Of a stretch of 64,000 nucleotides of DNA, positions 29,079-60,142 are shown piece by piece (the first letter of the stretch is position 1; each line of letters begins with the position of its first letter). A model generated the notes under the pieces. It worked only from the letters and a program-made list of their open reading frames with translations, did no database searches and had not been told where the DNA came from. Made by a program: the position numbers and the translations under genes. Source of the DNA: Amphiscolops sp. MND2022 (taxonomy: Eukaryota); the NCBI GenBank assembly GCA_964187785.1, contig OZ076409.1, forward strand, positions 62,994,001 to 63,058,000, given 5' to 3'.

Positions 29079-29084
29079 TTTATT
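29079..29084 (-). terminator. Predicted polyadenylation signal AATAAA in the 3' LTR
   Basis: The only minus-strand AATAAA I found in the LTR, about 25 nt from the LTR end. Confidence 0.5.
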
Positions 29085-29694: not shown

Positions 29695-29907
29695 AATAGT
29701 CTAAGCTAAAGTTTGGTCAACCGCAGAATTGAAATCAGCGGAAAATAATCTAAGGTAAGATTTTGTCAACCGCAGAATTGAAATCAGCGGAAAATAGTCT
29801 AAATTAAGATTTTGTCAACCGCAGAATTGAAATCAGCGGAAAATAGTCTAAGTTAAGGTTTTGGAAACCGCCGAGTTTAAATCAGCGGAAAATAGTCTAA
29901 GTTAAAG
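29695..29907. repeat. 49-bp tandem repeat (about 4.3 copies) inside the 3' LTR
   Basis: ccgc cores at 29721, 29770, 29819 and 29868 (period 49). Confidence 0.9.
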
Positions 29908-30684
29908 TCTCAGAGAGAATGAAATCTCTACTGAAAGGTCTAAATAGTCAGACTCACCAAACCGGAGACGAAATTGAAGAGAAATTTCTAAGTTAGAAAT
30001 TTCTTGTAAGGGAAGATTGGTTCTGGAAGTTGAAGTTAAATCAAGGATGAGTGGAGAAATATTCTAAGATGCAAGGGTATGATTAAAAGAGAATTATTGG
30101 ATCTGAGTTATTAAGCAAGAAGTTTTGTTGAGTTAAATAGCAATCGGAATTGAAAGTGAAGGCGAGAAATAGACTTTCTAAGTCTGAAGGGGAAGATAAT
30201 AGTAAAGGGAGAGGAAAGGGGGTAAAGTAAGAAAGAAGAGCAGGGGTGAGGGGAGAGAAGTGGAAGAGAAGTGAAGAGAAACGAGAGCTATTAAGTTTAA
30301 GCTCTGTCCGTTTCGATAAGTGTATGTGTGAATGAATCTCCTCGCCTGCGTTGGCCGTATATATACAGCCAAGCATTTCTTATCGTGCGCTGCGTAGCAG
30401 GCATGGCTTATCTTTCACCAATCATAGTTGGTTTCATATTTCAAATATACGCGGTATAATATAGAATTCTTCACTTGTGCAATTCCTTTCTCGTCACAGT
30501 ACTTCGTCATCATTATTACCATCGTTATGGCCGCCGCCTTATGACCGCCATCTTTATCTACAACTCTCTCTCCCATAAACAAACGTTAGTTCTAGTTCAT
30601 GTTTGTTTCTGTATTTGTTAGTTAAATATAGACTGCACTTTAGCACCTAATTATGTTTGTTAAAGCGTTAGTCATAACGCGACA

Positions 30685-31660: not shown

Positions 31661-32238
31661 TGTGCAGATATGGATCTTAAGGGAACTGTCAGCCGCTGTC
31701 CCTTCAGTGCAGGGTTCTCAATAGTGTATTCTTGTCTTTTGTTGTCCCAAAAGACGATTTTCCAGGTTGAAAACTGTGGGAGTAGAGAATACTTTAGGTT
31801 TGCGTTAAACCTAGGTTTTTTAACGTATCTGGCTTTTCTAGTGAAGTATTCCCTTTTATGTTGCTTATGTAAGGGTGCTTCATCGGCTATCTCGTTGTTC
31901 CATTCATGATAGTGTTTTTGTGGTGTGTTTCTTCTGATGTCCTTTCCACCAAATCTAGGAGGATGTTGTGTTGACGGGATTGGTGGTATGTCTCCTGTGA
32001 ATGACAAAGGAAAGGGGAGTTGGTCGGATGGCGTTGGTGTGAAGGTTGGAGTTGGAGATTTTGAGGGTGATGATGGGACCGTTGAGTCAGGGGGGTCGGG
32101 AAGGAAGGTAATTGTTGTAGACGAGTCTGGTGTCAAAAAGTCTGAAGGAGATAGGGGTTCGATTTCTAGGTCACTTTCTGGGATAGGATCCAGGGTATCG
32201 TCGTCCAGGCTTGGTAGGTCGAATAGTGGTTCTAGATT
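31657..32238 (-). CDS. ATG-less ORF/exon (193 codons; acidic Pro/Ser/Thr-rich, then basic region), probably spliced to the env N-terminus
   Basis: The frame opens immediately after tttacttttAG (32239); it contains no ATG; its stop overlaps the next ATG (ATGA). Confidence 0.65.
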   Translation of the reverse strand, partial: NLEPLFDLPSLDDDTLDPIPESDLEIEPLSPSDFLTPDSSTTITFLPDPPDSTVPSSPSKSPTPTFTPTPSDQLPFPLSFTGDIPPIPSTQHPPRFGGKDIRRNTPQKHYHEWNNEIADEAPLHKQHKREYFTRKARYVKKPRFNANLKYSLLPQFSTWKIVFWDNKRQEYTIENPALKGQRLTVPLRSISAQ

Positions 32239-32284: not shown

Positions 32285-34432
32285 TTATATTGGAGCTACG
32301 AAGCTCTGTACTGAGGGATAAAGTGATTCTTCCTTATTCTTCAGTGCTTGGAGTTCTACTTCTTTTCCATTATCTTCAGTTTTCGCGTTTTTATCTTCAA
32401 CGCTATCCTCGTAAGGGGCCCGCGGGGTGAATACAGAAGTTAAAACTGAAGTAAAGAAAAGATTGTACGAAGCACTGAGCAATGTTTTAGTGAAGCTCAG
32501 TGTATTACCTGTGAGGTGACGAAGTTCAAAGTATCGGAAGACGAGTACCGTGATATCTATTACGAACTTAATGAAAAGAAAGGCGCCAAAATACGCGCCG
32601 CAGAGTTCTAGTACGTAAGATATACTTCCAAATGTTTCAAGGAACTGATTTTTGAAGTAATCGGGTGAGATCATGCCGTCAACATAAAAATCTGTACGGG
32701 GTGCATAATACGCGAAAGATTCAGGTCCACTATGGGCCATTGAGGGTGTGATGAGCTCACGTGAGAACTTCTGGAGGGCGTTGCGAGACGCTGCGCTGAT
32801 GAGGATGTTGTCCCAAAATTCTGAGAGTTGTTTAGGCGTATACATTCCCGCGTCTTGTGAACCAGGGAAGGATCTAGTAATCATTGGTTGTATGTCTTTG
32901 GGTCCGAAGATAGCAGGTCGGTCGCGATGTTCGGGTGAAGGAGTGAGGGTAAACCAGGAGTCTTTGTCTTCCATATCCAATTGAAAGAGGTTCTTAATGC
33001 GATCGCTGCAATTTTGGGCGTTCGCGTTAGGATAGGTCTGTCGGGTGATTGGGTCCACGAAGGCAACCACTCCTTTGTAGAAGATGGGTATGCGGTCGTA
33101 GCATCGGTTCATCGTGTGAAGAGGTGAGTGGGATTCCGGGCAGTGGTAGAGCCAAGCGAGGCTGCCATCTGTGTTCAGGAACATTGAGCGATTTCCCGTG
33201 AGCATGTATCCGGCGAGGCGAGGATTTTCCACTGATAGCATCAAAATAGTAAGGATTTGAGTTCTTTCTTGTTCGCATTGTGCTTTGAGGAGCTGGATTT
33301 CTGAAGCTTCGAGGAGACGAGTGCTCTCAAAGAAGAGATAATCAAGCTTTGTCCCTTGGTGTAACTCGTAATCCATGTTGAGGTAATGAGGTGTATTAGG
33401 GTTGGGGTCGCTCGGGCCTCGAAAGAGGTGGAGTCGGCCATTACCAGAACCATCTTCGGGTGAATAATATTGTAGTTTAGATGTCTCTCCCATGGAGATG
33501 CCGAGTCGTCTGCCGGACGTCATGTCGAAGCCACCAAGTTGGATTGAAACGTACAGGGATTCGTAGTTGGTCGGGTATACATCGTCTGGTTTGTTGCAAT
33601 ACTTTTGTGGTCTGTTGTAGACTTCGAATAAAAATTTGGTAGTGGAGTCGTTGCCGCTTACGATATAGTAGTTAGATCCGTGTTTGATCATGTTCACGAT
33701 TTCTTTCCTATGTACTGCAAGCACGCAATTATCGGGTTCCGCCCATGTGTAGGCGTATGGGTCCAGTGACGTCGTTTCGCAACCTAGTTGTTCTAAGGGG
33801 CAGGGAAGGACCATCTGAAACGGAGTCAGGACTTTTCCATCTCGAGTTTTTACTGATAATTCAGCATCTTGGATGTGAGATTCGAATGTTTCTCTTTTGA
33901 TCCAGCCACCTGTCTTGCATTCATTTCGGGTATCTGGGTCGCGTACACCGTCCCAACCCTTTCCGTATTTGGCGTTTCTCGTCTGTACTTGTTTCACTCC
34001 TTTCTTAAATTTGAGGGGTTGTCCATGGATTATGACTTCTTTGCCTTCACCCATTGCCTTGCAGGTTTCGGGTGACAGGGAAAGATCGCTGGTGATTCCG
34101 TCGTGTAGGATTGACATACTGGAGTGGTCGTGATAACCACAATGCCATTCTTCACTCTGATGTTTCACACGGCACATAGTGGCGTTGATAGTGCGGCGGA
34201 AATGTTTAGTGTATAACGTTACGCTCGCACGACTTACCTCTAAGTTTTCAGGTGCCACATTGCATTGTTCAACTTGATTCAATGCGTAGAGTTTATTTTG
34301 GGTCATTTCGCCGCAGTCGAAATGAGTTACTCGCAGTTTTTTAGCAACGCTAGCGAGGTTTGGCGTTGGACGTTGTAATATCACAACGGGCGCGTAATGG
34401 GCGCATAAAAAGAGTAAGTAAAATAATTTCAT
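32285..34432 (-). CDS. env: Env-like fusion glycoprotein (715 aa), chuvirus/Jingchuvirales glycoprotein-like
   Basis: N-terminal signal peptide; Cys pattern HFDC..ALNQVEQC..CRVK..WHCGYHDH..PETC; C-terminal transmembrane segment (CGAYFGAFLFIKFVIDITVLVF); splice acceptor TTTCAG 2 nt before the ATG. Confidence 0.85.
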   Translation of the reverse strand: MKLFYLLFLCAHYAPVVILQRPTPNLASVAKKLRVTHFDCGEMTQNKLYALNQVEQCNVAPENLEVSRASVTLYTKHFRRTINATMCRVKHQSEEWHCGYHDHSSMSILHDGITSDLSLSPETCKAMGEGKEVIIHGQPLKFKKGVKQVQTRNAKYGKGWDGVRDPDTRNECKTGGWIKRETFESHIQDAELSVKTRDGKVLTPFQMVLPCPLEQLGCETTSLDPYAYTWAEPDNCVLAVHRKEIVNMIKHGSNYYIVSGNDSTTKFLFEVYNRPQKYCNKPDDVYPTNYESLYVSIQLGGFDMTSGRRLGISMGETSKLQYYSPEDGSGNGRLHLFRGPSDPNPNTPHYLNMDYELHQGTKLDYLFFESTRLLEASEIQLLKAQCEQERTQILTILMLSVENPRLAGYMLTGNRSMFLNTDGSLAWLYHCPESHSPLHTMNRCYDRIPIFYKGVVAFVDPITRQTYPNANAQNCSDRIKNLFQLDMEDKDSWFTLTPSPEHRDRPAIFGPKDIQPMITRSFPGSQDAGMYTPKQLSEFWDNILISAASRNALQKFSRELITPSMAHSGPESFAYYAPRTDFYVDGMISPDYFKNQFLETFGSISYVLELCGAYFGAFLFIKFVIDITVLVFRYFELRHLTGNTLSFTKTLLSASYNLFFTSVLTSVFTPRAPYEDSVEDKNAKTEDNGKEVELQALKNKEESLYPSVQSFVAPI

Positions 34433-34500
34433 TTCTGAAATTCTTCAGTCTTTGACAATCAATCAGGAAAAATGTTTTTTATAGATATGTGGATCCACGG

Positions 34501-34934
34501 TAAGGCCGTAAAAAGGCAAGCCGTAATATCAAACCGGCAGCTTAGCTGGCACGACACTAAGCGGAGGTTAAAATTTTATAGTAGTAACCTCACTACTATT
34601 GGAAAGTGCCTTATGGAAAGATTGTTGTTTTTTGTTTAAAGTATAGGTTTCGGAGTAAGGCCGTAAAAAGGCAAGCCGTAATATCAAACCGGCAGCTTAG
34701 CTGGTACAACACTAAGCGGAGGTTAAAATTTTATAGTAGTAACCTCACTACTGTTCACACGTACCTAAGAGAAGGAGAAGTTTATTTGTCTTTTAGTTTA
34801 GTTTAATGTTATGGATCCTGAAATAAGGCCGTAAAAAGGCAAGCCGTAATATCAAACCGGCAGCTTAGCTGGCACGACACTAAGCGGAGGTTAAAATTTT
34901 ATAGTAGTAACCTCACTACTATTCAAAGAGTGCC
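34501..34934. ncRNA. Three tandem copies of a 97-nt structured RNA motif (cores 34501-34597, 34656-34752, 34824-34920)
   Basis: Near-identical cores separated by divergent linkers; three hairpins, an H-type pseudoknot and a covarying loop-to-flank pairing. Confidence 0.7.
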
Positions 34935-34980
34935 CGAAGAAAAATAGTAAAAGAAACTAACTTCAACCATCTGTGAAGGT

Positions 34981-35325
34981 TCAGCTGTAGTTATCACTGA
35001 TTGATTTTAGACTGGGAGAGTGTTTGTTACGTCTCTGGGCGTCGAGGAAATCGATTAACTTGCTGAGGAGATGAAGGGTCAGAGGGTGAACGTGATCTAA
35101 GTAAGCGATCTCCCTGTAGTCGGTTAGCGCCTTCGCAAGATCTGCTGCTTCTGTCGAGTCTGTGGCGACAGGGATGAGCCAATGTCCCGTTTGATGTGGT
35201 CGGAGGCTGTGGAGTTCAATCTGAAGTGCGGGGGCGCTCTCTTTCCAGGCTATAGAGAGGATCTCAAGAAGTGTGTTTGTTTCCGGGTGACGCCAGAGAA
35301 ATTTGAGTTGTATTTTAAACATCAT
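34981..35325 (-). CDS. Accessory ORF D (114 aa), small-protein family
   Basis: ATGATG start overlaps the last codons of ORF C; motif pattern shared with A and C. Confidence 0.7.
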   Translation of the reverse strand: MMFKIQLKFLWRHPETNTLLEILSIAWKESAPALQIELHSLRPHQTGHWLIPVATDSTEAADLAKALTDYREIAYLDHVHPLTLHLLSKLIDFLDAQRRNKHSPSLKSISDNYS

Positions 35326-35710
35326 AGGTCTCAACTAGGGTGTGAAGATATTTTATTCTAACCTCTTCTTCAAAGGGGTTAGTTACTAGAGTGATATCCA
35401 TAAAATAAACCAAGTCGTCGAAAGCCTTGTCTTTAAGGACGGCGGGGTGTTGGAGTATGTATTGTTGGAACGATAGGAATAGGTAGGCGTATTCCTTGGA
35501 CCCGAAGTGAATAGGGAAGAGGACTAGTGCTTCTTTGTCTTCTGGTGTGAGTATACGGACTTGTATCGCCGAGGTAGTGATCTCGTAAAAGATTGAGTGT
35601 ATTTCGTATTCACCCGTGAGTTGTATGGGTTTCCAAGGAACCGGAGGTTGAAATTGAGTGTGGAAGTAGTACTTATTTCCTCGAAATACAGCAACTGCGG
35701 GAGAGGACAT
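35315..35710 (-). CDS. Accessory ORF C (131 aa), small-protein family
   Basis: TAATG stop-start overlap with ORF B; motif pattern shared with A and D. Confidence 0.72.
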   Translation of the reverse strand: MSSPAVAVFRGNKYYFHTQFQPPVPWKPIQLTGEYEIHSIFYEITTSAIQVRILTPEDKEALVLFPIHFGSKEYAYLFLSFQQYILQHPAVLKDKAFDDLVYFMDITLVTNPFEEEVRIKYLHTLVETYDV

Positions 35711-35931
35711 TAAAGGACTGACTTGGCTCTTGTGAAGACTTCGGTAGGTGTGTTATTATATAGTAGACTCTCCAGTAGTGGGTAGATAGGTGATGCTGGC
35801 ACACACGTGTAGGTTTCACTCTCTTCTTCTGCGATTGCGTAGGCTTGTATGATTATGTTCGGTGTTGAGGGTTCCTTCTGAATATCAGTTATCTGGGAAA
35901 GTCGGTTGTCAATTTTGAATATTATGATCAT
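35710..35931 (-). CDS. Accessory ORF B (73 aa), small-protein family
   Basis: Start overlaps the stop of a 14-codon uORF (ATGA); stop overlaps the ORF C start (TAATG). Confidence 0.6.
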   Translation of the reverse strand: MIIIFKIDNRLSQITDIQKEPSTPNIIIQAYAIAEEESETYTCVPASPIYPLLESLLYNNTPTEVFTRAKSVL

Positions 35932-36172
35932 CGGTGAGCTGTTATGCCTTGTGGCGTGTGTGCATCAAACATAGCAAATCTGAGAATGGAATCATCAGTT
36001 ATTTCATTGCGTTTTTGGGGGTATTTGTAGAGGAGAGAGGATTACGACTTCATGAGTCGTCGTAGTAAACTAGACAAATGTCCGGGTAGGATATTATATT
36101 TTATATCTGATGACTAAGTTGAATAGTGATACATATATGGTTGACTTTAATCAATAATTATAAACATTTTGC

Positions 36173-36868
36173 ATGACTTTAAATAAATCAAATTTGTATT
36201 TAGGGATGAGCAACAACGACAACAACAACTATAGCGACTATTACGAAGAATCCTCGACCGATGAGGAGACTACTGCTCCAGGGTCTGTGTCGGGCACTGC
36301 CGCTACCTCTTTGCCGCCACAATCGTCGTCGTCAGCTGGGCCGTCCTCGTCGAGCGGAGCGCGCACCAGTTCTTCTGCTCCCGCGTCATCAGGTTCTCAG
36401 GCAGGGACCTCTGGGGGTGGGTCTTTTGTGGCGTTTGTGGCCCCGAGGACTAGTGGCCCTTTTCCGCAAGCTCCCTCTACCATCTCGCAGGGTGTTTTGG
36501 AGAGCCCTGGGGATCAAAGTTTTATGGGTTTATTTACCCATAGGGATATCGACCGCCTAGAAAACTGGGCTTCATTAACTAGTTCCCTTCAGGGTACCCC
36601 CGGGTTTTCTGTTTCTGGTCCTCCCGGTCCAAATGCTCTAACTAGTTTCTTGCGGGCTAACTGGGGGGCCCGTTGGGAGCAGACTCTCCTGTCCTCTCTC
36701 GGCGAAATAGTCGTCTTCCAGCTGCGAGCCTACATAAGTGGCTACTCGCAGCTGACTAGTTTTGAGAGGGGTCAGTGGACCCGCCTCTATTCATTGTGGA
36801 CAATGGGGGAGCGGGCGGCTCAGCTGCGGCGACTTGCAGAGAAGGGAGGTTTCCTGGAAATTGAGTAG
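36173..36868 (+). CDS. Antisense accessory ORF (220-231 aa; acidic, Ser/Gly-rich N-terminus, helical Trp-rich C-terminus)
   Basis: Long GC-rich ORF opposite to element sense, occupying its own segment with no listed ORF on the other strand; likely ATG at 36206, just after tttag. Confidence 0.72.
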   Translation: MTLNKSNLYLGMSNNDNNNYSDYYEESSTDEETTAPGSVSGTAATSLPPQSSSSAGPSSSSGARTSSSAPASSGSQAGTSGGGSFVAFVAPRTSGPFPQAPSTISQGVLESPGDQSFMGLFTHRDIDRLENWASLTSSLQGTPGFSVSGPPGPNALTSFLRANWGARWEQTLLSSLGEIVVFQLRAYISGYSQLTSFERGQWTRLYSLWTMGERAAQLRRLAEKGGFLEIE

Positions 36869-37033
36869 GCATTATTGCCTCTCATCTCCAGGAAATACTT
36901 TATTTTTCTACGCTTTTGTGTTTGCTGCTTTTCGTAAGTTCCTTCTCGGGGTTGCACAAATTGTATAGGTAAAAAGTCTAATAATAATAATAAGAATAAT
37001 GATAATATTTTTCGAATAAGCGGTAATATCCGG

Positions 37034-37420
37034 CTAGGAGCTAGGCGAGGAGATAGTAGAACAGCAGAATAAGTCTTTTTGTGTGTTAGGTAATGAAGGT
37101 TGTAGGTCAGGTATCAGGGTAGGCATGTAGGATAGTAGTTCCTCTAGGATAGGGTCATGGTGGGTGACGGCATAATAGGCTAAGTGTTGATATAAGCGGG
37201 CGAAAGTAGGTGATTCTGGGTGTATATGAAGGTTAGATTTTCTAGGCGTAGGTTGTTTATGTGGGCTAGGATCTGGGTCGTTGGAGTAGAAACAAATTCT
37301 AACTATTTTGTTTTTGTAGGTCCAGTAGATTTTAGTAATCGTAACCTGCAGAATTCCTAAGGACTGGAGTTCTCGCGGGACTTGCCAAGGCAAGTTTAGA
37401 TAGACTTTATGGCACGGCAT
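37034..37420 (-). CDS. Accessory ORF A (128 aa), unknown small-protein family
   Basis: ATG 7 nt after the pol C-terminal stop; motif pattern shared with ORFs B-D. Confidence 0.7.
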   Translation of the reverse strand: MPCHKVYLNLPWQVPRELQSLGILQVTITKIYWTYKNKIVRICFYSNDPDPSPHKQPTPRKSNLHIHPESPTFARLYQHLAYYAVTHHDPILEELLSYMPTLIPDLQPSLPNTQKDLFCCSTISSPSS

Positions 37421-37427
37421 AGTAAGG

Positions 37428-38246
37428 TTATTCTTTGTAACCAATTCTAGTCCTTTCACGAAGTATGGACTGTCGTGCTGGTTGATTGGGTTGTGCTCGC
37501 TGATAACGTGGATTTCTCTCTATTTGGCGGGCAACAGCCTTTCGTAACTCTTGCAAGGGAGTCGTTGACTTGGTAGACGATGCCGGGGTGTTAGTTGGGG
37601 GTGCTGGAGTTGGTTGACGTTGAGTTAACGTCAGGATAGGGGTTGCTGCGTTTTGAAGAGGTGATGTCGAAGGCTGATCGGGAGTCTTGGGAGTTGACAA
37701 CAACTGATTTTCTGGAGAGATGATACCAGAGTCTGTGCTCTGGGGGGTTTGCGTTCTTTTGCGGGCAAGTATTTGGTTTTGTTGATTCCGTACTGGCAAT
37801 ATGCAGAGGTCTCCGAGTTTTTGTGGTTCTGAAACATTAAGTTGTTCAATTCTTCCTTTGACAAGATTGTTATAAAAATCCGTGTCTCCACGGTGGGGAG
37901 TAGTGTATTCTTCGATAAGAGGGGGGAGTGTTTCTTCTTTAGGAAAGTATTCTATTAGATGGTTCCTATGTACAGTTCGGAGATTCTCGGGGTTTTGATC
38001 TTCCATTATTTGGTAAGTTGTATTTGTAATTCGTTTGGTAACCGTAAAGGGTCCTAGTCGCAGTTGTTGGAGTTTTTGGCTTTTGGAGAGGTCTTTTCGA
38101 TGGTTCTCTAGCAGAACCTTTTGTCCAATGTTGAGGTGGTTCCCAAGTTTAAATCTGTTCCTGTAGGCGTGTGATTGAGCTGTTTGTTTTCTGCACTTTT
38201 CATATGTGGATGAGTAGACCTTTTTGAAGGCTGTTTCTCGTTCCAA
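37428..38246 (-). CDS. Integrase C-terminal region (GPY/F motif) plus Pro/Thr-rich tail, split from pol by a 1-nt frameshift near 38250
   Basis: IGQKVLL...LGPFTVTKRITNTTYQI...TVHRNHL is the typical gypsy integrase C-terminus; it overlaps the end of the pol ORF in the -1 frame. Confidence 0.88.
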   Translation of the reverse strand: MERETAFKKVYSSTYEKCRKQTAQSHAYRNRFKLGNHLNIGQKVLLENHRKDLSKSQKLQQLRLGPFTVTKRITNTTYQIMEDQNPENLRTVHRNHLIEYFPKEETLPPLIEEYTTPHRGDTDFYNNLVKGRIEQLNVSEPQKLGDLCILPVRNQQNQILARKRTQTPQSTDSGIISPENQLLSTPKTPDQPSTSPLQNAATPILTLTQRQPTPAPPTNTPASSTKSTTPLQELRKAVARQIERNPRYQRAQPNQPARQSILRERTRIGYKE

Positions 38247-41200
38247 TAAGTTTGTGATAGTTGTGGTCGTAATAGTCCATTTAGTAGTTCGTTTTTGACT
38301 TGGTTTTCGCTATGGCAATGAGGAGGTAATCCTTGACAGAATTGTGATTTGCAGTTCTTGTTTTTGTTCCTGTAGAGTCCCAGCTTCAGACTCATAGGTA
38401 TCTGTGGTTTATTGCAAAACACTATCTCGTAGGGGGTCTTTCCAGTCGTGTAGTTGACGCTTGTGTTGTGGGCGAATGCAAATTTGGCAGCTAGTTGGGC
38501 CCAGTTGTTTCCTGATTCGTTTAGGAAGTTTCTCCAGTATCTTGCAATGTGTTGATTTTGAGTTTCTACTTTGCCATTTGTCCAGGGTGAGTGTGCGGTT
38601 CTTGGTCGAAGTGTAATGCCAAACTCTTTAGTCCAATTGACGAATTCAGTGTTCACGAAAGCTGTTCCTCTATCATGTACGATAGATTGAGGGATGCCAT
38701 AGTGCATAATCCATTTTTCCATCGCATTGATTGTAGATTGTGCTCCTGTGTCTCTGACTGGGTATGCCATCAGGTAACGTGAGAAGGCGTCGATGATCAG
38801 AAGGCAATGTGAATTTCCACGACTGGGAGGATTGAGTGGTCCTTTGTGATCAATGTGGATGGTTCTGAATACTTGAGTTTCGGTTTCGCAGTCTTCCAGT
38901 GGGACTTCGTTGTTTCTCCGTTGTTTGGATTTGTTAGATTGGCAGCTAACACAATCTTGTGTGAGGGCACAGATCCAGTTGTGCATCCCTGGCCAGTAGT
39001 AAAATCTCTTAGCATTGAGGAAGGTCTTTTCTGCTCCCATGTGGCCGCCGAGGTCGTTGTAATGTCCCATACGAAAGCAAGCTAAAAATAGAGAGAGAGG
39101 TAGACAGATTCTCAGATTCTCGTCTGTTGGGTCATCAGTTGGCTCGTTATAACAAAGGAGGTTTCCTTGGCCTTCTATAGATAATCTGTCGAATTCCTGA
39201 AAGTAACGCATGAGGCCTTTTGAGTGTTGTAACTCTGGTGATTTTGGTTCGGGTTTGTTTCCTGTTCTTACCCATTGTCGGACCACGCTGAGTACCGGGT
39301 CATTTATTTGTTCTTGTAAGATCGTTGTAACGTTTAGTTCTACTTCTTTGGATAGTTTATCAAGTTGTCTGACAAGTTCCTGTGTTGGTGTCTTTTGTTT
39401 TTCAGTTGAATTTGTAGGTAGATCGAGGTGTTCTATTGCCTTCGCGTTTTTGGGAAGACTTGGGTTACGTGCGATGGGATCTTCTGTGTTGAGCTCGTAG
39501 TTGGTCTCGTTTATTTCTTGACTCTGATTGTCTGTGAGGGCTTCGTCATCCGTATCACTGTTGATGGAGCTGTAAGTGTTTTGTGATAAATCCGAAGTGC
39601 TATCCCGTGTTCCTGACCTGATTCTTAGTTCTTCGAATTTTCCAAGTTCTCTTCCAGCGTCGAGGCAACTCTGTGCTGACTCTACTTTCGGCAGGTTAGG
39701 TTCCTCGTAGATAGAGTTAACTGTGAAGTTATTCCCATCATTTTGGAGATGAAGTACTTTCCGTTTTTTTCCCTTCTCGTACAAGATGGGGTAAAAGTCG
39801 TTCTTGGATGTCTCTTCATTTTCTTCGTGTTTGATTTTGTAGTGTACTTGGGTTCCATGTTCGTCGAAAAAGTGTATGTCAGTTGGGATGACTTTGTGAC
39901 TGAGTTGATGTTTCTTGTGTTCCTCGATGGAGACGTTTCGACTGAGTATATCAGGGAAGGCTAGGTTGCTTCCTGGAGTCCAAATTATCTTGAGATTCGG
40001 GAATTTAGATATAATTACTTGGTACCTGAAAAAACGGGGTGAAATTTGTCCCTTTCTTCCCCAGAGATAAAGAATCGGCTTGTGATCGCAGTATAGGTAG
40101 ATGGGGAAGGGAGATCCGATGATGTAGTGTTCATACGTCTGAAGAGCTGAGACTATGCCACATAATTCTCTGTGTAGTGTGGACATCTTTTGTTCTTCCT
40201 TTGCGAAAACTCTTGAGTTGAAGGAAATGATCCGTTTCCCTTCTGGGAATTGTTGGATGAGGATACATCCTGTCCCAACGTTTGACGAGTCGACGTGTAT
40301 GTGAAAGGGGTATTTTGTCGAGGGTATTGCGAGCACTGTGTCTTCGGTAATTTTTTTCTTTATTTCCTGGAAAAGGTCTTCGTGTTCTTGGTTCCAGCAA
40401 AAATTTGTATCTTTCTTGGTGAGTTCGTAAAAAGGTCGACTATCGACATGAAGATTCTTGATGTAGCAGCTATAGAAGCCCAAAGCTCCTAAGAAGCTTT
40501 TCACTTCGGTTTTGGTCTTTGGTGATTTGAGATTGTGTAGGTCTTTTACTCGTTTTGCGACGGGTTGTATTCCTTCGGCTGCTATCACGTGTCCCAAAAA
40601 CTTGACTTTCCTTAAGAAGAAGAGTGTCTTATCTGGTGCTGCCTTGAGTCCGGCTTTCCGCAGTAAGTTATGGTATTCTTGAATTACCGTGAACATTTCT
40701 TGTTTGTTTTTGGCTTGCATCAACGTGTCGTCGATGTATGTAATTGCCTGTTTCCTTTTGATGAGGGGTTCGAAGTGGATAGTCATCATTCTGCTAAAGA
40801 AGCTTGGTAATCCCTTGAGTCCATAGAATCCCCTGGTGAAGGTGTATTGTTTTCCGCCAATGATGAAGCTGGTGAGTTTTTGCGTGGGCTCGTCTAATGG
40901 GACTTGGTGAAATGCACAGGAGAGATCACTTACTGAGAAGATGTTTCCATTTATTAGTGTCATTATGGTTTGGATCGGTTCTAAGGGCCAGGAATAATTT
41001 GTTAGATCTGTCACCGAGTTTAGATATCTCGCATCTATGATCAGCTTGACATAGTCATGTTTTGGTTGTAGTATAATAGGATTCACAAATAAGGATCCCA
41101 TTTCTTCATCGTCGCCCATTTCTCTGATGATATCAGCGTCTTTGAGTTGTGTGAGTAGCTTCTCTAGCTTTTCTCGTAGGTGAAGTGGTACTTTGCTGGG

Positions 41201-42937
41201 TCTCTGTCTCTTTAGAATTGCTCCAGGTTCTAGTTTAATGTTAAATTTTTGTCTGGTTTTCCCTACGTCAAATTTGTGTTGGGAGTATACATCTCTTGCG
41301 TCCATTAGTAAGTCTATTAGGAGAACCAGTTCTTCGTCTGTGAGGTCTGAGTAGCGAAAGTCGAATTCTTTAATGTATCGCACTGCTTCTTTATTTTGAT
41401 ACTGAAGGTAGTACTCGATCAGTCGTTCGTTGTCTTCTTTTGGCCTGAAGATTTTAAATTGCTCATCGCAGGGTGGTTGACAGGACTTTGCGTCGCTTGT
41501 GAAGTCTGTCTCCAGCTCTCTATGTTTGAGATGAAATTGCTCGGAAAATTGTTGTATCTCATCTTCTAGTACGTATTCGGGGTCTCCTCTTGTAGTCATG
41601 GCATAGACATCTAGTTCGTTTCTTGTATAAATTCGGAGTTGTATTTCTGAGTATGCAAATACGTCTTGAATGAGTTGAGTGACGTCTTGCCATTGGAAGT
41701 CTTCTAGCTCTGAGGCTTCCCGTAGCATGGATATAGTTTTGATGCCGCTCATTTTGGCGTGTGCTTTTAGAGTTTCGAGAGATTGAACTAGTAATTGTGG
41801 GTCAATCTTGTCTTTTGATTTTGCTTTCGTAATCAGAACATATATAAATCGTTTCAGAGTTTCGTCCCAGTAGGGTATGGTTTCTCCTTTCTGTGGTTTC
41901 TGTTTTGCGCATGTATCCTTAAGTGAAGGTATTTTCGTTAGGATTTCTTTTGAGAAGCCTTTGGCTGGCTTTAGGTCGGCCGGGACGAAGATGATGATAG
42001 GGTCTGGTCTGCTGAGTATTGTTTTCGAGTTTCCTCCTTCTATTCTGAGGCAATCGTTCATATCTTGTGAAGGAATGGTAGAGTGTAATAGGAAACAGTC
42101 GTTGTATTCTTCGTTTTCGTTTAGGATAGCATATGCGAGTTCTGTCGGGTTTCTAATTTGGTATTTCGGAATTTCTTGGTCTAATACGTCAAGCATTGAG
42201 TATCCGATAGTTCCTTTTACTAAGGTGATTGTATGGTTTTTGTTGTTTTCCATGACGATTGGTAAAGTCTTCTCAAATCGTGTACAGAGGACATTTATGA
42301 AGTTAAGTCCAGTAGAAACTGCCTTCCTGTTCGGTAGGAACGTAGATCCAGGAGGAAATGAGTTATTAGTGTTTTCCGGTGCGAATTTGTAACATCTTGT
42401 CGTCTTTGGTTCGATATACATTGAGTGAGGAATTCGGACTGAGAGAATTTGTGATAGATAGGGGTAACATTTGTTGAGTTGTAGGCTACCATAGCAAAAA
42501 GTATTTATAGGTCTTTTGAGTTCTATGCCAGGAAGATCAAAGTGTATTTTGTTAACTTGTTCTTGGCAGAAATTCATTCCAAGGAGGTTTTGGGTTTTCA
42601 TCTCTGTTATCCAGACTGTTAATGGGAAGTTATGTTGTCCATCGGAATCGTAGTAGAGTTTGAGGGTGATGTATCCCATCATAGGGATGATCTGCCCAGA
42701 GTAATTCCGTGTTGTGTTATTGCTTCTACTAAGTTCTAGGTCTTGTTGAAACTGGCAAAGTTCTCTAAAGGTCCTGTAGTTGATGATTGAAGATGTTGCC
42801 CCAGTGTCTAGTAGAAATTCGATTTCTAAGCCACTATCTTTTTGTGAGTCTCCGGCAGCAAAATAATAAAGATTAAGACTAAATTTTAGAGGGGCACTGC
42901 TGCTATTTCTATTTTTCGGAGACCTTAGTAGTTTAAA
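38108..42937 (-). CDS. pol: Pol polyprotein: aspartic protease, macrodomain, RT, RNase H, integrase (entered by frameshift)
   Basis: FLLDTGA (upstream of the listed ATG) and LLGMNF protease; DLSCAFHQV, FYGLKG and YIDD RT; IHVDSS, HRELCGI and YCDHKPI RNase H; H-H-C-C (GHY..GGH..CVSC) and IHIDH / IVHDRG / NGKVE integrase. Confidence 0.96.
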   Translation of the reverse strand, partial: FKLLRSPKNRNSSSAPLKFSLNLYYFAAGDSQKDSGLEIEFLLDTGATSSIINYRTFRELCQFQQDLELSRSNNTTRNYSGQIIPMMGYITLKLYYDSDGQHNFPLTVWITEMKTQNLLGMNFCQEQVNKIHFDLPGIELKRPINTFCYGSLQLNKCYPYLSQILSVRIPHSMYIEPKTTRCYKFAPENTNNSFPPGSTFLPNRKAVSTGLNFINVLCTRFEKTLPIVMENNKNHTITLVKGTIGYSMLDVLDQEIPKYQIRNPTELAYAILNENEEYNDCFLLHSTIPSQDMNDCLRIEGGNSKTILSRPDPIIIFVPADLKPAKGFSKEILTKIPSLKDTCAKQKPQKGETIPYWDETLKRFIYVLITKAKSKDKIDPQLLVQSLETLKAHAKMSGIKTISMLREASELEDFQWQDVTQLIQDVFAYSEIQLRIYTRNELDVYAMTTRGDPEYVLEDEIQQFSEQFHLKHRELETDFTSDAKSCQPPCDEQFKIFRPKEDNERLIEYYLQYQNKEAVRYIKEFDFRYSDLTDEELVLLIDLLMDARDVYSQHKFDVGKTRQKFNIKLEPGAILKRQRPSKVPLHLREKLEKLLTQLKDADIIREMGDDEEMGSLFVNPIILQPKHDYVKLIIDARYLNSVTDLTNYSWPLEPIQTIMTLINGNIFSVSDLSCAFHQVPLDEPTQKLTSFIIGGKQYTFTRGFYGLKGLPSFFSRMMTIHFEPLIKRKQAITYIDDTLMQAKNKQEMFTVIQEYHNLLRKAGLKAAPDKTLFFLRKVKFLGHVIAAEGIQPVAKRVKDLHNLKSPKTKTEVKSFLGALGFYSCYIKNLHVDSRPFYELTKKDTNFCWNQEHEDLFQEIKKKITEDTVLAIPSTKYPFHIHVDSSNVGTGCILIQQFPEGKRIISFNSRVFAKEEQKMSTLHRELCGIVSALQTYEHYIIGSPFPIYLYCDHKPILYLWGRKGQISPRFFRYQVIISKFPNLKIIWTPGSNLAFPDILSRNVSIEEHKKHQLSHKVIPTDIHFFDEHGTQVHYKIKHEENEETSKNDFYPILYEKGKKRKVLHLQNDGNNFTVNSIYEEPNLPKVESAQSCLDAGRELGKFEELRIRSGTRDSTSDLSQNTYSSINSDTDDEALTDNQSQEINETNYELNTEDPIARNPSLPKNAKAIEHLDLPTNSTEKQKTPTQELVRQLDKLSKEVELNVTTILQEQINDPVLSVVRQWVRTGNKPEPKSPELQHSKGLMRYFQEFDRLSIEGQGNLLCYNEPTDDPTDENLRICLPLSLFLACFRMGHYNDLGGHMGAEKTFLNAKRFYYWPGMHNWICALTQDCVSCQSNKSKQRRNNEVPLEDCETETQVFRTIHIDHKGPLNPPSRGNSHCLLIIDAFSRYLMAYPVRDTGAQSTINAMEKWIMHYGIPQSIVHDRGTAFVNTEFVNWTKEFGITLRPRTAHSPWTNGKVETQNQHIARYWRNFLNESGNNWAQLAAKFAFAHNTSVNYTTGKTPYEIVFCNKPQIPMSLKLGLYRNKNKNCKSQFCQGLPPHCHSENQVKNELLNGLLRPQLSQTYWNEKQPSKRSTHPHMKSAENKQLNHTPTGTDLNLGTTSTLDKRFC
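42847..42937 (-). promoter_or_regulatory. Programmed -1 ribosomal frameshift signal (U UUA AAC + downstream stem)
   Basis: TTTAAAC at 42937-42931 is in the gag frame, one codon before the gag stop. The -1 frame is open through FLLDTGA into pol. Stems GGTCTCCG/CGGAGACT and GCAGCA/TGCTGC begin 6 nt downstream. Confidence 0.88.
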
Positions 42938-44379
42938 GGGCGGAAATCGGCAATAGAGTTCACCGAGTAGTCGGTTTCTAAGAACTGTACTGTGTTGGAT
43001 CTTCCTATGTCATTAGTTTTTGGGAATCTTTGCTCGTAAGATTGAGTTGGAGTGTTGGGTCTTTCGTTTCTGTCTAGTGGTCTTTGAAAAACTGAGTTAT
43101 TTCTTGGTGGAAGAGGTTGTATGTTGCGATTAAAGGAGCTAGACTGGTCTCTGTTGAAGTTGAACGGAGATCTTGCTCTTTGGGGTCCAGGGGAAACACT
43201 TCTGGAGTTGTTAGAATTGTTTAGGAAGGGTCTTCTCCCTTCTTGTGAAAATCTTTGGTTACCAGGATTGACTCTTGTATTCGTAGGTCGGCGTTCTGGG
43301 TTGAAATTTTTTCTTTGTGGTCTATCGTATTGATTCCAGGCAGGGTTTGACTGCATAGCTCCAGCCAGTGCTAGTTGATGTGCCACAGCCATATGTTTTC
43401 TGATTTCTGAATCTGGTAATCTTGGTTGAAATCTAGAGCCATGTTCAGGTCCAGTTCTCTTGTTGTAGTCGTTGGTGAATGTTATTCTTCTTTCTGGGTT
43501 AGCTTCGTTTTGAACCTTCTTCACTTCTTCATCTCTCATCTTCTTTCTGCACCAGTTAGGTGTGTGTCCATTTGTTCGGCAGTAGCCACAGAATCGTGTG
43601 GCCATTCTTCGACCTGTAGCATTAGGGTCTACAGTTTTCTCTACTGCGTTGATTGTGTTATTCATCTGTTCTTTGATTTGTAGTTTGATTCCCTTCAGGT
43701 CGTCTCGCATTTCTTGTATGAGTGGGTCTGAATGTGATTCTCCGCCAGTTAGGGCGGTAGTTACCGTGTAGGAGAGATCTTTGTTTATTATAGCTTGGGA
43801 GAATTGTTCCCAGGTTGCATTCGGGTGATCCATTAAATATTCGTGTGCCTTTTCTCTCAGTTTTGGAGGTCTTAGGCCTCTCAGTGAGTAGTCGATGCAC
43901 CTTTGTCTTCTTTGTCGGTCTTGTGCTGCTCTTTCTGCGTTTCTGTCGTTTTGTGCGACGCCGGCAAGATCATCTGGCCAGCCTTTCCCCACAACAATTT
44001 TGATTCTGTGTAGAAAATTCTTTATCTCTTCTCCATCTCTTCTGGTGACATGTTCTGCTTCCATTCTGTGTCTGAATTTATTTCGGCCATCTGCGAATCT
44101 TGTGATGAACCTTTCTCTGATTTCTTGCCAGGTGTTAGCGTCTGTGATACTTGTCTCGAACCACTCCGCTGCTGGTCCTCTTAGTAGTGTAGCAAAGTAG
44201 GATTTTCTCCTGAAGTTGTAGTCGTCAAGTGCTGCTCCGTTTGCTGGGGTATCACCATGAGAGAAACGGAACTTCTTTTCAATTAGCTGTATAAATTGTT
44301 CAGGATCTTGATCTGGGTCTGTTCCCGTGAATTGGTCTCTGCCGAGGTCTGGATAAGCCAAGTAATTTTGCGCAGCCAT
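42925..44379 (-). CDS. gag: Gag (484 aa) with capsid-like region and CCHC zinc knuckle
   Basis: LLRGPAAEWF...TWQEIRERFITRF capsid-like motif; CGYCRTNGHTPNWC = C-X2-C-X4-H-X4-C; first long ORF after the PBS. Confidence 0.93.
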   Translation of the reverse strand: MAAQNYLAYPDLGRDQFTGTDPDQDPEQFIQLIEKKFRFSHGDTPANGAALDDYNFRRKSYFATLLRGPAAEWFETSITDANTWQEIRERFITRFADGRNKFRHRMEAEHVTRRDGEEIKNFLHRIKIVVGKGWPDDLAGVAQNDRNAERAAQDRQRRQRCIDYSLRGLRPPKLREKAHEYLMDHPNATWEQFSQAIINKDLSYTVTTALTGGESHSDPLIQEMRDDLKGIKLQIKEQMNNTINAVEKTVDPNATGRRMATRFCGYCRTNGHTPNWCRKKMRDEEVKKVQNEANPERRITFTNDYNKRTGPEHGSRFQPRLPDSEIRKHMAVAHQLALAGAMQSNPAWNQYDRPQRKNFNPERRPTNTRVNPGNQRFSQEGRRPFLNNSNNSRSVSPGPQRARSPFNFNRDQSSSFNRNIQPLPPRNNSVFQRPLDRNERPNTPTQSYEQRFPKTNDIGRSNTVQFLETDYSVNSIADFRPLNY

Positions 44380-45395
44380 TGCGAGCTATTGAGATTATAA
44401 AGGATAGAAGATGAAGCAAAGAACAATAAGCCAAAGACTCTATGAGGTATGATACTCTTGGCTTTTGAGAATAACAGCAAAGAGTTAAAGTAAAAATTGT
44501 TTGTACTATGATTCTAATAGTGATAATTATTAGACAGGTCTGACAAATCATAAAATCCTTAATACGCTGCTAGCAAAAATGAAAATAGCACTTCTCGGTC
44601 GAAGTTAGGTTCATTTCCTATATTTCGTACTCTGATTCCACAGTTTAGGGGATACTTACAAATCCCAGTAGTGTTGAGATTATCGTAAAAAGGGTAGTTC
44701 GGGGTATACCAATCCTCCGAGTTAACCCAAAGAAAACCTATGAAGAGTACAGTCAGTCCACTAGGTCTTTCATCCGCTCGTTGAGCCTTTCTTTAACTTT
44801 AGGAAAATAACTACGGCTAGTTCACAGAGGGAGTTACTCTCGTCTTTAGGATTAAGTGCGTGGGGCCCAGATCACTATCATGCAATCACTTGGGTACTAT
44901 CACTAGAATACTAGGTTTCCCACTCGGAATGCTACATAGGTTCCAAGATACCCACTGGGCTCACGGCCTTCAAACAGCCTCCGAGGAGACCTAGGCGGGC
45001 TTTTACTTAATTTGTGTCCGTCCGGACTAGAGTGAATTTCCCAACTGTGCCTTTAAATAAAGCGTATAGAGTCAGTTTCATTCTTGTTTAGGACTGATGG
45101 TAATCTCATAGTATTTTCGTAAAGGTAAATCATTTCTAACAAATGGTTTTGGGGATTGAAAGAAAGAGAGTGGTGCATAAACTCTTCCCAAAGCTGTTAG
45201 GCTGGAGAGATTCTGTTAGAGTATTTACTAGCAGTTTTACGATTTATATAGATTAGAGAAGCCACATATTGAGGCAGTAGGAGAAAGAAGAAAATTAGAA
45301 GTAATGTTAAGAGAAATAAGTAAGTAACCCTTACTTCTGAGAGTAGGGATTCTAACAGATAGCTCATTTACTTCTCTATTACAAGAGAAAAAGTT

Positions 45396-45413
45396 GCCTC
45401 ACTGGTCGCACCA
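45396..45413 (-). promoter_or_regulatory. Primer-binding site of element 1 (TGGTGCGACCAGTGAGGC)
   Basis: Starts with TGG 3 nt after the 5' LTR. Its complement GCCTCAC-TGGTCGC-A-CCA has tRNA 3'-end architecture (T-stem CTCAC as in tRNA-Met(e) or Ile-UAU). The tRNA identity is unresolved. Confidence 0.85.
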
Positions 45414-46055
45414 GTTTGTCGCACGCATGGGTGAAATTAGTTTATTAGTTTTAATCTGTCAAGTCCTTGTTTGCATTTTACAAGGTACTATCTCGCGACG
45501 GTTCTGTTATTGATTTATCAAGTATAAGTCCCAACAAATAAATTAGCAACTTACTGATAAAGGGGTGCCTTGCGTGTACGTGCGAACAAAAGAAATTGCG
45601 TGAGTCGCGCAAGGCGGTGTTTGTAAATGAGCTTCCCGTTTACTGAAAATGTATGGTGAATAAATATGTTTAATTACGAATGAGTTGAGAATATTGAAAG
45701 TGAACAATTTCTGGACATAGCAATATTTCCTTCAATTGTTACAAATCTCAGATTAATAAAGATTACAACTTCACTTTACAAGAAGTAATATAACTTTTAC
45801 AATTTATCATTTAAGAAAATGAAACTATTTACAAATAATAAGAATTTCCCTTTTTCTTCGGAAATCTTTTTCTCAAACAAAGATTACAAATCCGTACTAT
45901 TTTAAACGGAAGAGTTTTGATTTAGATGTCTCTATTCAGTAGAAAGTTGAATAGCATTAAGACTTTTCATAATATGACACTTTAAAACTTCAATCATCCC
46001 TTTTCTTATGTGAGTTTATGTAATTTCAACCTCATAGAAATTTAGTTCTAATAAG

Positions 46056-46268
46056 AATAGTCTAAGCTAAAGTTTGGTCAACCGCAGAATTGAAATCAGC
46101 GGAAAATAATCTAAGGTAAGATTTTGTCAACCGCAGAATTGAAATCAGCGGAAAATAGTCTAAATTAAGATTTTGTCAACCGCAGAATTGAAATCAGCGG
46201 AAAATAGTCTAAGTTAAGGTTTTGGAAACCGCCGAGTTTAAATCAGCGGAAAATAGTCTAAGTTAAAG
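46056..46268. repeat. 49-bp tandem repeat (about 4.3 copies) inside the 5' LTR
   Basis: Unit ...aaccgcagaattgaaatcagcggaaaatagtctaa... with period 49. Confidence 0.9.
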
Positions 46269-46690
46269 TCTCAGAGAGAATGAAATCTCTACTGAAAGGT
46301 CTAAATAGTCAGACTCACCAAACCGGAGACGAAATTGAAGAGAAATTTCTAAGTTAGAAATTTCTTGTAAGGGAAGATTGGTTCTGGAAGTTGAAGTTAA
46401 ATCAAGGATGAGTGGAGAAATATTCTAAGATGCAAGGGTATGATTAAAAGAGAATTATTGGATCTGAGTTATTAAGCAAGAAGTTTTGTTGAGTTAAATA
46501 GCAATCGGAATTGAAAGTGAAGGCGAGAAATAGACTTTCTAAGTCTGAAGGGGAAGATAATAGTAAAGGGAGAGGAAAGGGGGTAAAGTAAGAAAGAAGA
46601 GCAGGGGTGAGGGGAGAGAAGTGGAAGAGAAGTGAAGAGAAACGAGAGCTATTAAGTTTAAGCTCTGTCCGTTTCGATAAGTGTATGTGT

Positions 46691-46726
46691 GAATGAATCT
46701 CCTCGCCTGCGTTGGCCGTATATATA
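46691..46726 (-). promoter_or_regulatory. Predicted LTR core promoter: TATA box + initiator
   Basis: TATATATA (46726-46719) lies about 30 nt upstream of an Inr-consensus TCATTC (A at 46694) on the minus strand. Confidence 0.6.
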
Positions 46727-49700
46727 CAGCCAAGCATTTCTTATCGTGCGCTGCGTAGCAGGCATGGCTTATCTTTCACCAATCATAGTTGGTTTCATAT
46801 TTCAAATATACGCGGTATAATATAGAATTCTTCACTTGTGCAATTCCTTTCTCGTCACAGTACTTCGTCATCATTATTACCATCGTTATGGCCGCCGCCT
46901 TATGACCGCCATCTTTATCTACAACTCTCTCTCCCATAAACAAACGTTAGTTCTAGTTCATGTTTGTTTCTGTATTTGTTAGTTAAATATAGACTGCACT
47001 TTAGCACCTAATTATGTTTGTTAAAGCGTTAGTCATAACGCGACAGTACATTTGCTCTTTTTGAGCCTTAGGCAGGTCGCCGACTCATGCCGTTCCCGGC
47101 TTGTTTTGTAGTTTAAGATTCATAAAGACGCCGACTTATGCGGTTCTCGGCTTGTTTCATAATTTAAGGTTCCCAAAGACTAGAGACATTTTACTTCGCT
47201 GGCAGAAAATTTCAAAGTGCAAGATTTTTAATGTTCGTTTGACCGAAAAGTCTCAGAAGCCTAAATTTCTAAATATTCTATGTAAATTGAAATCTTATTT
47301 TCCGTTTCGCAATGAATCAAAAAACGCAAAAACTAATATATTTTGGATTTTCGGGAGATCTTTGTATAGTTACTCATGCACTATAGTTAACAAGGAAAAA
47401 TCTCATCTAATGCTTGCATATTGATGGTCTAAATTCCCTAATTCAGCACCTAATTCACCGAGTTATCTGACATATGGTTTAAGAAAACAGCATTTTGGGA
47501 CTACTTAAGTGAAGCTGGCTCAGTTCTTAATACAATCCCAGAGCAAAATGTCTTGAAACTCTTGTATAGATCTTACATATTCTCATATACTATTGAAAGC
47601 GTTGATAAGATCTTGCTTCACACAGATCTCTTGACTTTTATGAAATGAATTTTGGTAAGAGTTTCATCAAGAGTGGCAAGAAAATAAATAACTTACGGAA
47701 CAACCAATAGTTTTGTTTACAATTACACTGCTATTGCTCGAAGTACCATCTTCACTATCACAAGGTTTTGAAATTTAGGATCGATTTATTATTGAAATAA
47801 AGCTCGACTAACAGAGGGTTCGTGTGTCGTTTTGTACTTCATCAATTTTTTTGATTTTCTCAATCTGGTCGACGTGACCGTAAATTGTTTAAAATACGAC
47901 GAAAACGATTCAAAGGGTTCTCCTTCTTTCTTTTCATGCAATGTACAACATTTTCTGAATTTTTGATTTCTCCAAAAATGTTTTTTTACTTTTTGACAAC
48001 TTCAGCCCGAAAGTTGTTTTTCAAGACTGTGAGACTATTGTCATCAGCCTTCCAGCATATTTGAGGATAATATAGCCAAAAAAACTCTTCTAGTTTTTGT
48101 TCCTCAACGTAAGATTGTCTTTAACCGGGGCGTCGACAAACCAAAGTTGAGTTTGAAAAACAAGATAGGATCGCTTCATTCAGAATTTTCCAATGATGAG
48201 TGCAAACATAATCTTTGCCAGTCTAGAATATGATTTTCGTGTTTAAGAATTGGTTCCCATTTTACAATGACGTAGTTTAGGTTTATTAACGACTGAAAAT
48301 ACGACAGGATAAATTTGAAAATTCGGCAACGAATAATCCAGGAAACGTAGCTATTATATCGTTCATCTTCGAAGACGCCATCATTCATCTTCATCCTGAA
48401 AGTTTCATCGCCGTCATGAAATGAAAAACTGGCTGGTTATTTTTTTCTATTCTTAATCTTCTAATCTTTCTAAATCTTAATCTCTTTTCTCTTTTTGTCG
48501 AGGACTCTTTCCAGAAAGTTTTAGGAATCAGTCTGAAGATGAGAGTTTGAAGGCCCAGGAGACCAATTCCTTTGTTCCATCTGCTGCCTAGCAGTACAAA
48601 GTGGCTTCACATCTTGCAAAAGAGTAGTGATGAATCTGCACCTTTTTAGAACTAATGTAACCTAGAATGATTTGGATATATTGCAATTTCATTACCGAGT
48701 TTTTTGGCCTTGAAAACTATAAAAAACAATGTAGTGTAAAATTTTTTCGATAGATTGCCCACATATAACATTATCAGTTATAACTTGAGCTGGGTTAGCG
48801 TTTTCGAAAGTAAAAGTCAAAAAATGTTTGTATCAAAATTATATTTGCCGTCCTCCTCAACACTTTTCGTTAAATAAATAGAACCAGTGAAAGTAACAAT
48901 TGTCAGTCTATGAGCCTCAAAATCAAAAAGGCTGCACTAAAAATATTTTCGACACTTTGTGCGGAAATAATTTCGATAAAACTTCCCGCTGAGTTTTTGA
49001 AAATTTTTTGTTCCCGTTGGATTATTTTCTCACGTTCTCTGTGATACATTGTTGCTGATAGGAGGTGTCTTGTTTTGTTTCTTTCTACATACAGAATACA
49101 ACAAATATTGCAAAGACACCGCGCTTGTTTCAAGTTTTGTCGGAATGTAAGTGCTTGACGTCCTACTCTTGGCGTTGATTTTTTCGCGGGCGTAAATTTC
49201 AACTGGAGTGCAGGCTTATTTGATACACCCCACTGTTGGAAAACTTTGGAACAAATCATGCATATGGTTACTTGCCTGGGCAAACCTAACCCAAATTAAA
49301 ACAACAATCTTCTATTTCAGACAAAATATGAGGACCGCCTTTTTACATTGCAGGAAAACACTTGCTAAGACTTGATATCTTATGTTTGTCAAAAATGCTC
49401 GGTCAAGTTGTTTTGGAAAAAATCGACCCAATTTGTGAGTTTGCCAAGTTCGGTATATTTCATCCGTAACAAAAAACGTAATACCAATAGTTTCCAGTTC
49501 ATTCATGCATGAAAAAACCTTTTTTCCAGAAGTTTGTGCAAAAAGGTACGATTAGCAAGTGTCTTTGGCAAAATGCTTTGGTTTTTGGATAAGCGAGCGA
49601 ATTAATTGCAGTAGTGAGATTATTTATTCATACAAACGCACGTATCTTTGCGAAAATTGTCTCGCTAACTGTTCCTTATCGAATGCTTGCTCCGCTACCG

Positions 49701-56808: not shown

Positions 56809-56820
56809 CTCTTCCCTTCT
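56809..56820 (-). promoter_or_regulatory. PPT of element 2 (AGAAGGGAAGAG)
   Basis: Pure purine 12-mer abutting the TG of the 3' LTR. Confidence 0.88.
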
Positions 56821-60141: not shown

Positions 60142-60142
60142 C

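Follow-up and report, generated by a model that had tools for sequence, protein, structure and literature searches.

The structures closest to the domain reported here are those of human TARG1 (also known as OARD1 or C6orf130; PDB codes 4J5S and 2LGR) and bacterial DarG (5M3E and 5M3I), with which it has its fold in common. [quoted passage not shown] MND2022 (GCA_964187785.1, contig OZ076409.1, positions 62,994,001 to 63,058,000), hereafter called the window, to whose positions all coordinates refer. In TARG1, adenine binding falls to D20 and diphosphate binding to the GxG loop, and contacts with the distal ribose come from S35, T83 and D125; K84 serves as nucleophile, and the adduct is resolved by D125 (PMC6397177). 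Each of the substitutions G43E, I44E and G123E abolishes both ADP-ribose binding and hydrolase activity of the human enzyme, and G123E and G43E retain RNA binding (PMC5928194). TARG1 also reverses thymidine-linked ADP-ribose on single-stranded DNA (PMC8501950).

Macrodomains likewise reside within the viral replicase polyproteins of alpha-, corona- and hepeviruses; among them is the SARS-unique domain (SUD), which sets a precedent for a macro fold with another ligand (8ufm and 6yxj align to the window model with Z 9.7 and 8.9). These viral domains, which we take to be MacroD-like, rank well below TARG1 and DarG in the same comparison (Z about 9–14), and it is for those viruses that counter-PARP roles are shown. 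Among retroelements, fish epsilon-like endogenous retroviruses carry macro-domain open reading frames (ORFs; Basta et al. 2009, as reported in the review PMC4977317). They have a captured cellular macrodomain in common with the window element, but belong to the Retroviridae and carry it in additional ORFs, whereas the window element is of the Metaviridae type and holds a degenerate domain of the TARG1 class inside pol. With regard to layout, the closest known counterparts are the "ancient errantiviruses", env-carrying Ty3/gypsy elements with an HSV/gB-type env (Chary and Hayashi, PMC13524379), with which the window element has in common the LTR-gag-pol-env order, the class III env family, near-identical LTRs and many close copies. 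It differs in its length of 18 kb, the macrodomain in pol and an ORF with a MATH domain. Term look-ups in PMC13524379 found macro, dUTPase and TRAF nowhere in the main text, and matched only species names in the supplements.

A TARG1-type macrodomain with an altered pocket

The window domain was confirmed to be a macrodomain of the TARG1/OARD1 type. Peptides that a preliminary description, made from the sequence letters, had read as TARG1-like lie in the pol reading frame at residues about 320–463, where it had placed them. A 170-residue piece taken alone retrieved five TARG1/C6orf130 entries from the PDB sequences (phmmer, E 1.3e-11 to 1.5e-11), in agreement with the class proposed in that description, and the next-best match had an E value of 0.64. 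The AlphaFold2 model, computed from an 81-row alignment, has a predicted local distance difference test score (pLDDT) of 90.6 and a predicted template modelling score (pTM) of 0.86. TARG1 entries occupy ranks 1–8 in a Foldseek search with this model (best 4j5s, E 4.4e-12, root mean square deviation 1.9), and VIA-align superimposes it on TARG1 2lgr with Z 19.5 and a root mean square deviation of 2.0 over 141 aligned residues, followed by DarG (16.9), Poa1p (15.1) and viral macrodomains (13.9 or less). The alpha/beta macro fold that the preliminary description called for is thus predicted, and the nearest structures and sequences are of the TARG1/DarG class. Pfam Macro (PF01661) was not detected in the window domain (0 families); the same profile is weak on intact relatives as well (13.3–21.7 bits against a cut-off of 22). 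A chance alignment or a wrong reading frame was considered and is ruled out by the PDB sequence matches, Foldseek and VIA-align.

Compared with TARG1, the domain keeps the catalytic Lys at a structural identity of ~25%, sits in a retroelement polyprotein, and is altered at the adenine-binding Asp, S35, the GxG loop and D125. With TARG1 numbering taken from the PDB alignments, the residues at D20, S35, T83, K84 and D125 are Asn, Pro, Thr, Lys and Glu. GDLF is replaced by GNSK and MGAGIA by PAKGFS, ITK is retained (LITK), and the phosphate loop PRIGCGLD has become LREASELE, in which GxGxD reads ASELE and a Glu occupies the G123 position. It had been stated earlier that ITK is kept and the other three motifs are lost. 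This holds for ITK and for the alteration of all three, but G43 of MGAGIA is in fact retained, and the loss of GDLF is common to motif-intact relatives. The I44 equivalent is Phe in 35/35 proteins of a profile search for longer proteins, and D20 is missing from all 32 of its proteins that span the site, motif-intact relatives included, so that the intact form, too, departs from the textbook TARG1.

The published TARG1 pattern, TKx(30,35)Px[IL]GxGxD (PMC6397177), is matched by 24 of 34 proteins of a sister lineage and by 4 of 5 other fragments that share the flanks or the clade, and by none of the 21 proteins of the window lineage. This set, which contains many near-copies, consists of 19 cluster members with the whole domain together with P0237 and P0035. 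The G123 position is acidic (Glu or Asp) in all 21, and P0035, whose domain is 46% identical to that of the window, has a Glu at G43 as well. Because the published signature fails, the window domain counts by its sequence as a degenerate representative of this fold class, and not as a canonical TARG1 hydrolase. The replacements argue strongly that ADP-ribose hydrolase activity has been lost in the window lineage, and the Glu residues at G123 and D125 and the Pro at S35 make the pseudo-enzyme suggested earlier probable.

Relatives with the domain at the same position

Among cluster representatives, 212 matches were retrieved at E ≤0.001; of the 150 listed, 24 also match another part of the window pol. 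The profile search aimed at longer proteins yielded 37 matches among 6157 candidates. One of these, P0207, is a full-length sister pol of 1827 amino acids, with 617 member sequences and the same domain order as the window pol. In the cluster of the window lineage, 19 of the 30 proteins span the region, 4 cover it in part and 7 do not reach it. All 19 have the domain, which rules out an insertion peculiar to the window copy. The largest sister clusters have 854, 617 and 201 members, and the two clusters of the degenerate lineage are smaller, with 108 and 36, sizes that include fragments and members that may stem from more than one organism.

Sister domains at the same position have the TARG1 signature intact, and therefore the macrodomain is an old fixture between the protease region and the reverse transcriptase (RT), with a pocket loss that is specific to the lineage. 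The position in pol that the preliminary description called unusual is a family trait, common to the signature-intact sister lineages. The domain is indeed located between protease and RT, as had been proposed, yet it does not adjoin the protease: ~170 residues separate the two, and another ~85 lie between the macrodomain and the RT region. The signature-intact sisters, and a second macrodomain-bearing LTR element in the window, had escaped notice.

A macrodomain tree was computed in a quick version with 106 of 158 candidates; it is mostly unresolved, and no count of captures is taken from it. The window family (21 rows) is set off with an SH-aLRT support of 95. P0098, which shares flanks by a loose threshold only, falls outside the family and looks spurious. 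P0139, also outside it, sits on a long branch and has a TARG1-like domain that is degenerate independently. A metagenome scan returned one weak match of 50 residues, and the one run on record covers short pieces that do not include the domain.

Explanations for the retained domain

The explanation we regard as moderately probable is that a once-active, captured TARG1-type hydrolase is now a pocket-dead module that is retained for its fold within Gag-Pol. An ancestor of this env-carrying Ty3/gypsy family would have captured a TARG1-type ADP-ribose hydrolase, which became fixed between the protease region and RT and, translated in Gag-Pol by −1 frameshifting, would enter the particle. The domain of the intact relatives may strip ADP-ribose from the reverse-transcription complex, be it from its RNA, its nascent cDNA or its proteins. 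In the window lineage, Glu at G123, Pro at S35 and Glu at D125 would close the pocket, and ADP-ribose would be neither bound nor cleaved. The pocket-dead domain would stay, under selection that is relaxed yet real, because the polyprotein needs a folded module of this size, whether for spacing, for folding or for processing.

Rates of change, compared as protein distances only, bear on this proposal. The domain has diverged as much as its flanks in 5/5 intact pairs (p 0.63–0.9) and more than its flanks in 6/6 pairs of the degenerate lineage (p<0.05 in 4). Between the window and P0207 it is 37% identical, against 62–63% for the flanks and 82% for RT (p 3e-7); when two fragments from an intact lineage farther away are compared, no excess over the flanks is seen (p 0.3–0.4). 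Such faster change would suit a neutral relic with no job, which persists since the frame must stay open and deletion has not yet happened, as would the comparison with the sister lineage, where the domain is as diverged as a free linker at residues 1111–1225 (differences 91/144 and 66/111, p 0.6). Within the degenerate lineage, however, the domain diverges less than this linker in 5/5 pairs (p<1e-6 for four of them and p 0.22 for the fifth), with 12/144 against 49/115 differences in one example (p 1.3e-10). The fold is predicted and the length is kept, 144/144 window residues being aligned in 6 of 7 relatives tested and 141 in the seventh, and we consider a neutral relic quite improbable. In the pocket loops, positions identical between intact lineages exceed those in the rest of the domain (25/34 against 40/110, p 1.7e-4), and no such extra conservation is found between the window and P0035 (19/34 against 47/110, p 0.24). 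The sequence pattern agrees with a pocket freed from constraint and a fold that is kept, and nothing in it points to a new conserved site.

This result also tells against the repurposed binding module put forward in the preliminary description, since the altered loops are no better conserved than the rest of the domain; nor are they significantly less variable (4/34 against 27/110, p 0.15). In this alternative, the ADP-ribose-blind domain would bind RNA, cDNA or a host protein via a basic surface and aid packaging or reverse transcription, in likeness to the ADP-ribose-blind TARG1 mutants that bind RNA and to the coronavirus SUD macrodomains, which bind G-quadruplexes (PMC2674928). The domain is basic (net charge +5, isoelectric point 9.2), has a Lys-rich loop after K84 and adjoins RT, but its charge is not above that of intact relatives (+2 to +8). 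A complex prediction of the macrodomain with the RT region gave no answer (score 0.00) and counts neither way; on balance we think such a binder unlikely. An enzyme that has been remodelled, with K84 still the nucleophile and Glu in place of D125, could act on ADP-ribose adducts or another aldehyde-forming substrate, and the retention of G43 in the window speaks in its favour. It is hard to reconcile with an acidic residue at G123 throughout the lineage, the loss of the phosphate-loop glycines, the changes of S35 to Pro and D20 to Asn and, in P0035, the Glu at G43, a second change known to block binding, and it appears to us improbable.

Several points weigh against a module that is retained for its fold. 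The K84 equivalent is Lys in 21/21 lineage proteins and D125 is changed only to Glu in 21/21, both of which would suit the remodelled enzyme. An altered stretch of nine residues in loop 1 is identical in a relative that is only 46% alike, and this identity counts against the proposal because a purely structural role does not demand it. The trees of the flanks fail to nest the degenerate lineage robustly inside the intact ones, and the direction from intact to degenerate is taken from a single consideration, namely that the intact motifs are common to cellular TARG1. The alignment behind the structural model is dominated by intact macrodomains, which may bias the fold, a bias from which the single-sequence PDB match is free. 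The pairs compared share history, many copies hardly differ from one another, and the p-values should be read as no more than a guide. Finally, it is by analogy with other viruses that we infer a counter-defence role for the intact form.

The host element and the wider occurrence of the domain

The macrodomain-bearing pol belongs to a Ty3/gypsy gag-pol-env LTR element of ~18 kb on the minus strand (Table 1). The TG..CA ends of its LTRs, the target duplication, gag, and the order of protease, RT, RNase H and integrase in pol are those of Metaviridae-type elements. Because the LTRs are 99.94% identical, the insertion is recent. The pol frame is −1 relative to gag, downstream of both slippery heptamers, and from this arrangement and established retroelement biology the macrodomain would be made within Gag-Pol via −1 frameshifting, and hence be packaged, which makes the virion packaging proposed in the preliminary description a reasonable supposition. 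A frameshift-stimulating hairpin was sought in the 79 nucleotides after the slippery site, and none was stable (z 0.01). The window copy is broken in the integrase tail, and natural copies with an uninterrupted frame exist. After pol follows a third ORF of the gB type by its Pfam match, as in errantiviruses in the wide sense. The type of env and the TRAF-like ORF suggest an animal host.

Table 1. Features of the window, with positions on the forward strand.
Feature	Position	Strand	Details
5' LTR	45417-47045	−	1629 bp; + strand ends TGTCGC...GCGACA; 99.94% identity with other LTR
3' LTR	29055-30684	−	1630 bp
Target duplication	29051-29054 and 47046-47049		GTAC, 4 bp
Tandem repeat, one per LTR	29554-29951 and 45915-46312		49-nt period
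Stretch like a primer-binding site	45397-45413	−	Begins TGG, three bases past 5' LTR
gag ORF	42925-44385	−	486 amino acids, stop to stop; Pfam Retrotrans_gag E 1.7e-5
Two overlapping in-phase slippery heptamers	42931-42940	−	Immediately before gag stop
pol ORF	38108-43009	−	1633 amino acids: protease, fold-unassigned region, macrodomain, RT, RNase H, integrase
Aspartic protease (LLDTGA)	42563-42832	−	Pfam gag-asp_proteas E 1.1e-5
Conserved region between protease and macrodomain	42062-42562	−	~170 residues, fold unassigned
TARG1/OARD1-type macrodomain, pocket-degenerate	41621-42061	−	pol residues about 317-463
K84-equivalent codon	41825-41827	−	
G123-equivalent codon	41708-41710	−	Glu
D125-equivalent codon	41702-41704	−	Glu
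RT (YIDD) and RNase H	40001-41212	−	RVT_1 E 9.7e-19; RT_RNaseH E 7.2e-22
Integrase zinc finger and core	38585-39088	−	Pfam Integrase_H2C2, rve
Integrase tail, other frame	37428-38309	−	Window copy broken at ~pol residue 1584, near 38.26 kb
env-like ORF	32285-34444	−	719 amino acids; class III (gB-like) fusion glycoprotein family; Monjiviricetes_fusion E 7.8e-33
Accessory ORF just inside 3' LTR	30722-31717	−	TRAF-type MATH domain: MATH_2 E 1.8e-8, TRAF5 E 1.1e-5
Second LTR element, RT-less	55040-61928	−	gag, protease, TARG1-type macrodomain; LTRs 96% identical; TGG stretch like a primer-binding site
Second TARG1-type macrodomain	57783-58232	−	GDLF, HCVSAD, MGTGIA, LVSK...PRIDCGLD; E 5e-27 to TARG1

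The region between protease and macrodomain is 63% identical to that of the sister lineage. Searches of this region against Pfam, PDB sequences and the Atlas gave nothing usable, and its structural model is of low confidence (pLDDT 35.6). The Atlas clusters that come nearest consist of unnamed eukaryotic proteins (score 0.87–0.89), a lead only. A dUTPase-like fold for it would be a guess that none of these searches supports. Several ORFs of 117–234 amino acids in the interval between pol and env (34500-37519) have no convincing Pfam match; one of them, at 36164-36868, is on the plus strand, and a 150-nucleotide repeat is present there in three copies (34500-34972). The accessory MATH ORF has a weak PAM2-like motif near its start (PAM2 E 0.0087, below the Pfam cut-off), and represents a captured immune-signalling module within the same 18-kb element.

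The second macrodomain of the window lies in an LTR element in which RT, RNase H and integrase were not found by tblastn with five pol queries. The two window macrodomains are 29% identical and are grouped apart in the quick tree, where the RT-less family is set off at SH-aLRT 96. Relatives of the RT-less element have a single ORF of ~830 amino acids and are numerous (clusters with 87, 25 and 22 members); the strict TARG1 pattern is matched by 12 of 22. In the window copy the coding sequence is spread over three frames, the strict pattern fails at two positions and the first loop glycine is an Asp. Judged from its sequences, this family is non-autonomous, keeping the eraser but not RT.

Other gypsy pols have the TARG1-type domain after RNase H or after integrase. 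In P0154, P0175 and P0171 it follows RNase H (in P0154 before the integrase zinc finger), and all three match the strict pattern. P0157, an unrelated gypsy-type pol, ends with integrase, a TARG1-like macrodomain and a Tpt1/KptA-like domain (E 3.1e-6), a tail that may combine a writer-like and an eraser-like ADP-ribose activity in one polyprotein. The several positions suggest several captures or moves of TARG1-type domains, and we infer that their repeated capture would counter host ADP-ribosylation. A broader reading, which we put forward as doubtful, joins these observations. Invertebrate hosts would ADP-ribosylate the RNA, cDNA or particle proteins of retrotransposons, and Ty3/gypsy elements would several times have captured erasers of the TARG1 type (at positions that separate protease from RT or RNase H from integrase, behind integrase, and in the RT-less gag-protease-macro family). 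The eraser of the window lineage would have become an ADP-ribose-blind, nucleic-acid-binding Pol subunit, with erasing supplied in trans by co-resident elements or no longer needed.

In some insect gypsy polyproteins, automated domain annotations mark a Poa1p-like macrodomain. A description of a Ty3/gypsy pol with a TARG1-type domain was not found in the literature searched, which included term look-ups in PMC13524379, PMC6338049, PMC8672886, PMC5718144, PMC12440569 and PMC7729036, with subscription papers and Repbase reports outside the search. Prior notice of gypsy-pol macrodomains is plausible because of the automated annotations and because Repbase reports lay outside this scope. The capture of a macrodomain by a retroelement is already on record for the fish retroviruses, which limits the interest of the case.

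Taken alone, the dead domain probably represents a modest instance of enzyme decay in which the fold has been kept. The dead copy has, by nature, the Gly-to-Glu change that biochemists use for blinding TARG1, and pocket-intact and pocket-dead natural versions at the same position in pol can readily be compared in binding and hydrolase assays. That gypsy pols carry TARG1-type domains in several places hints at repeated selection of an eraser able to act on nucleic acids, and this family bears on whether ADP-ribosylation restricts retrotransposons.

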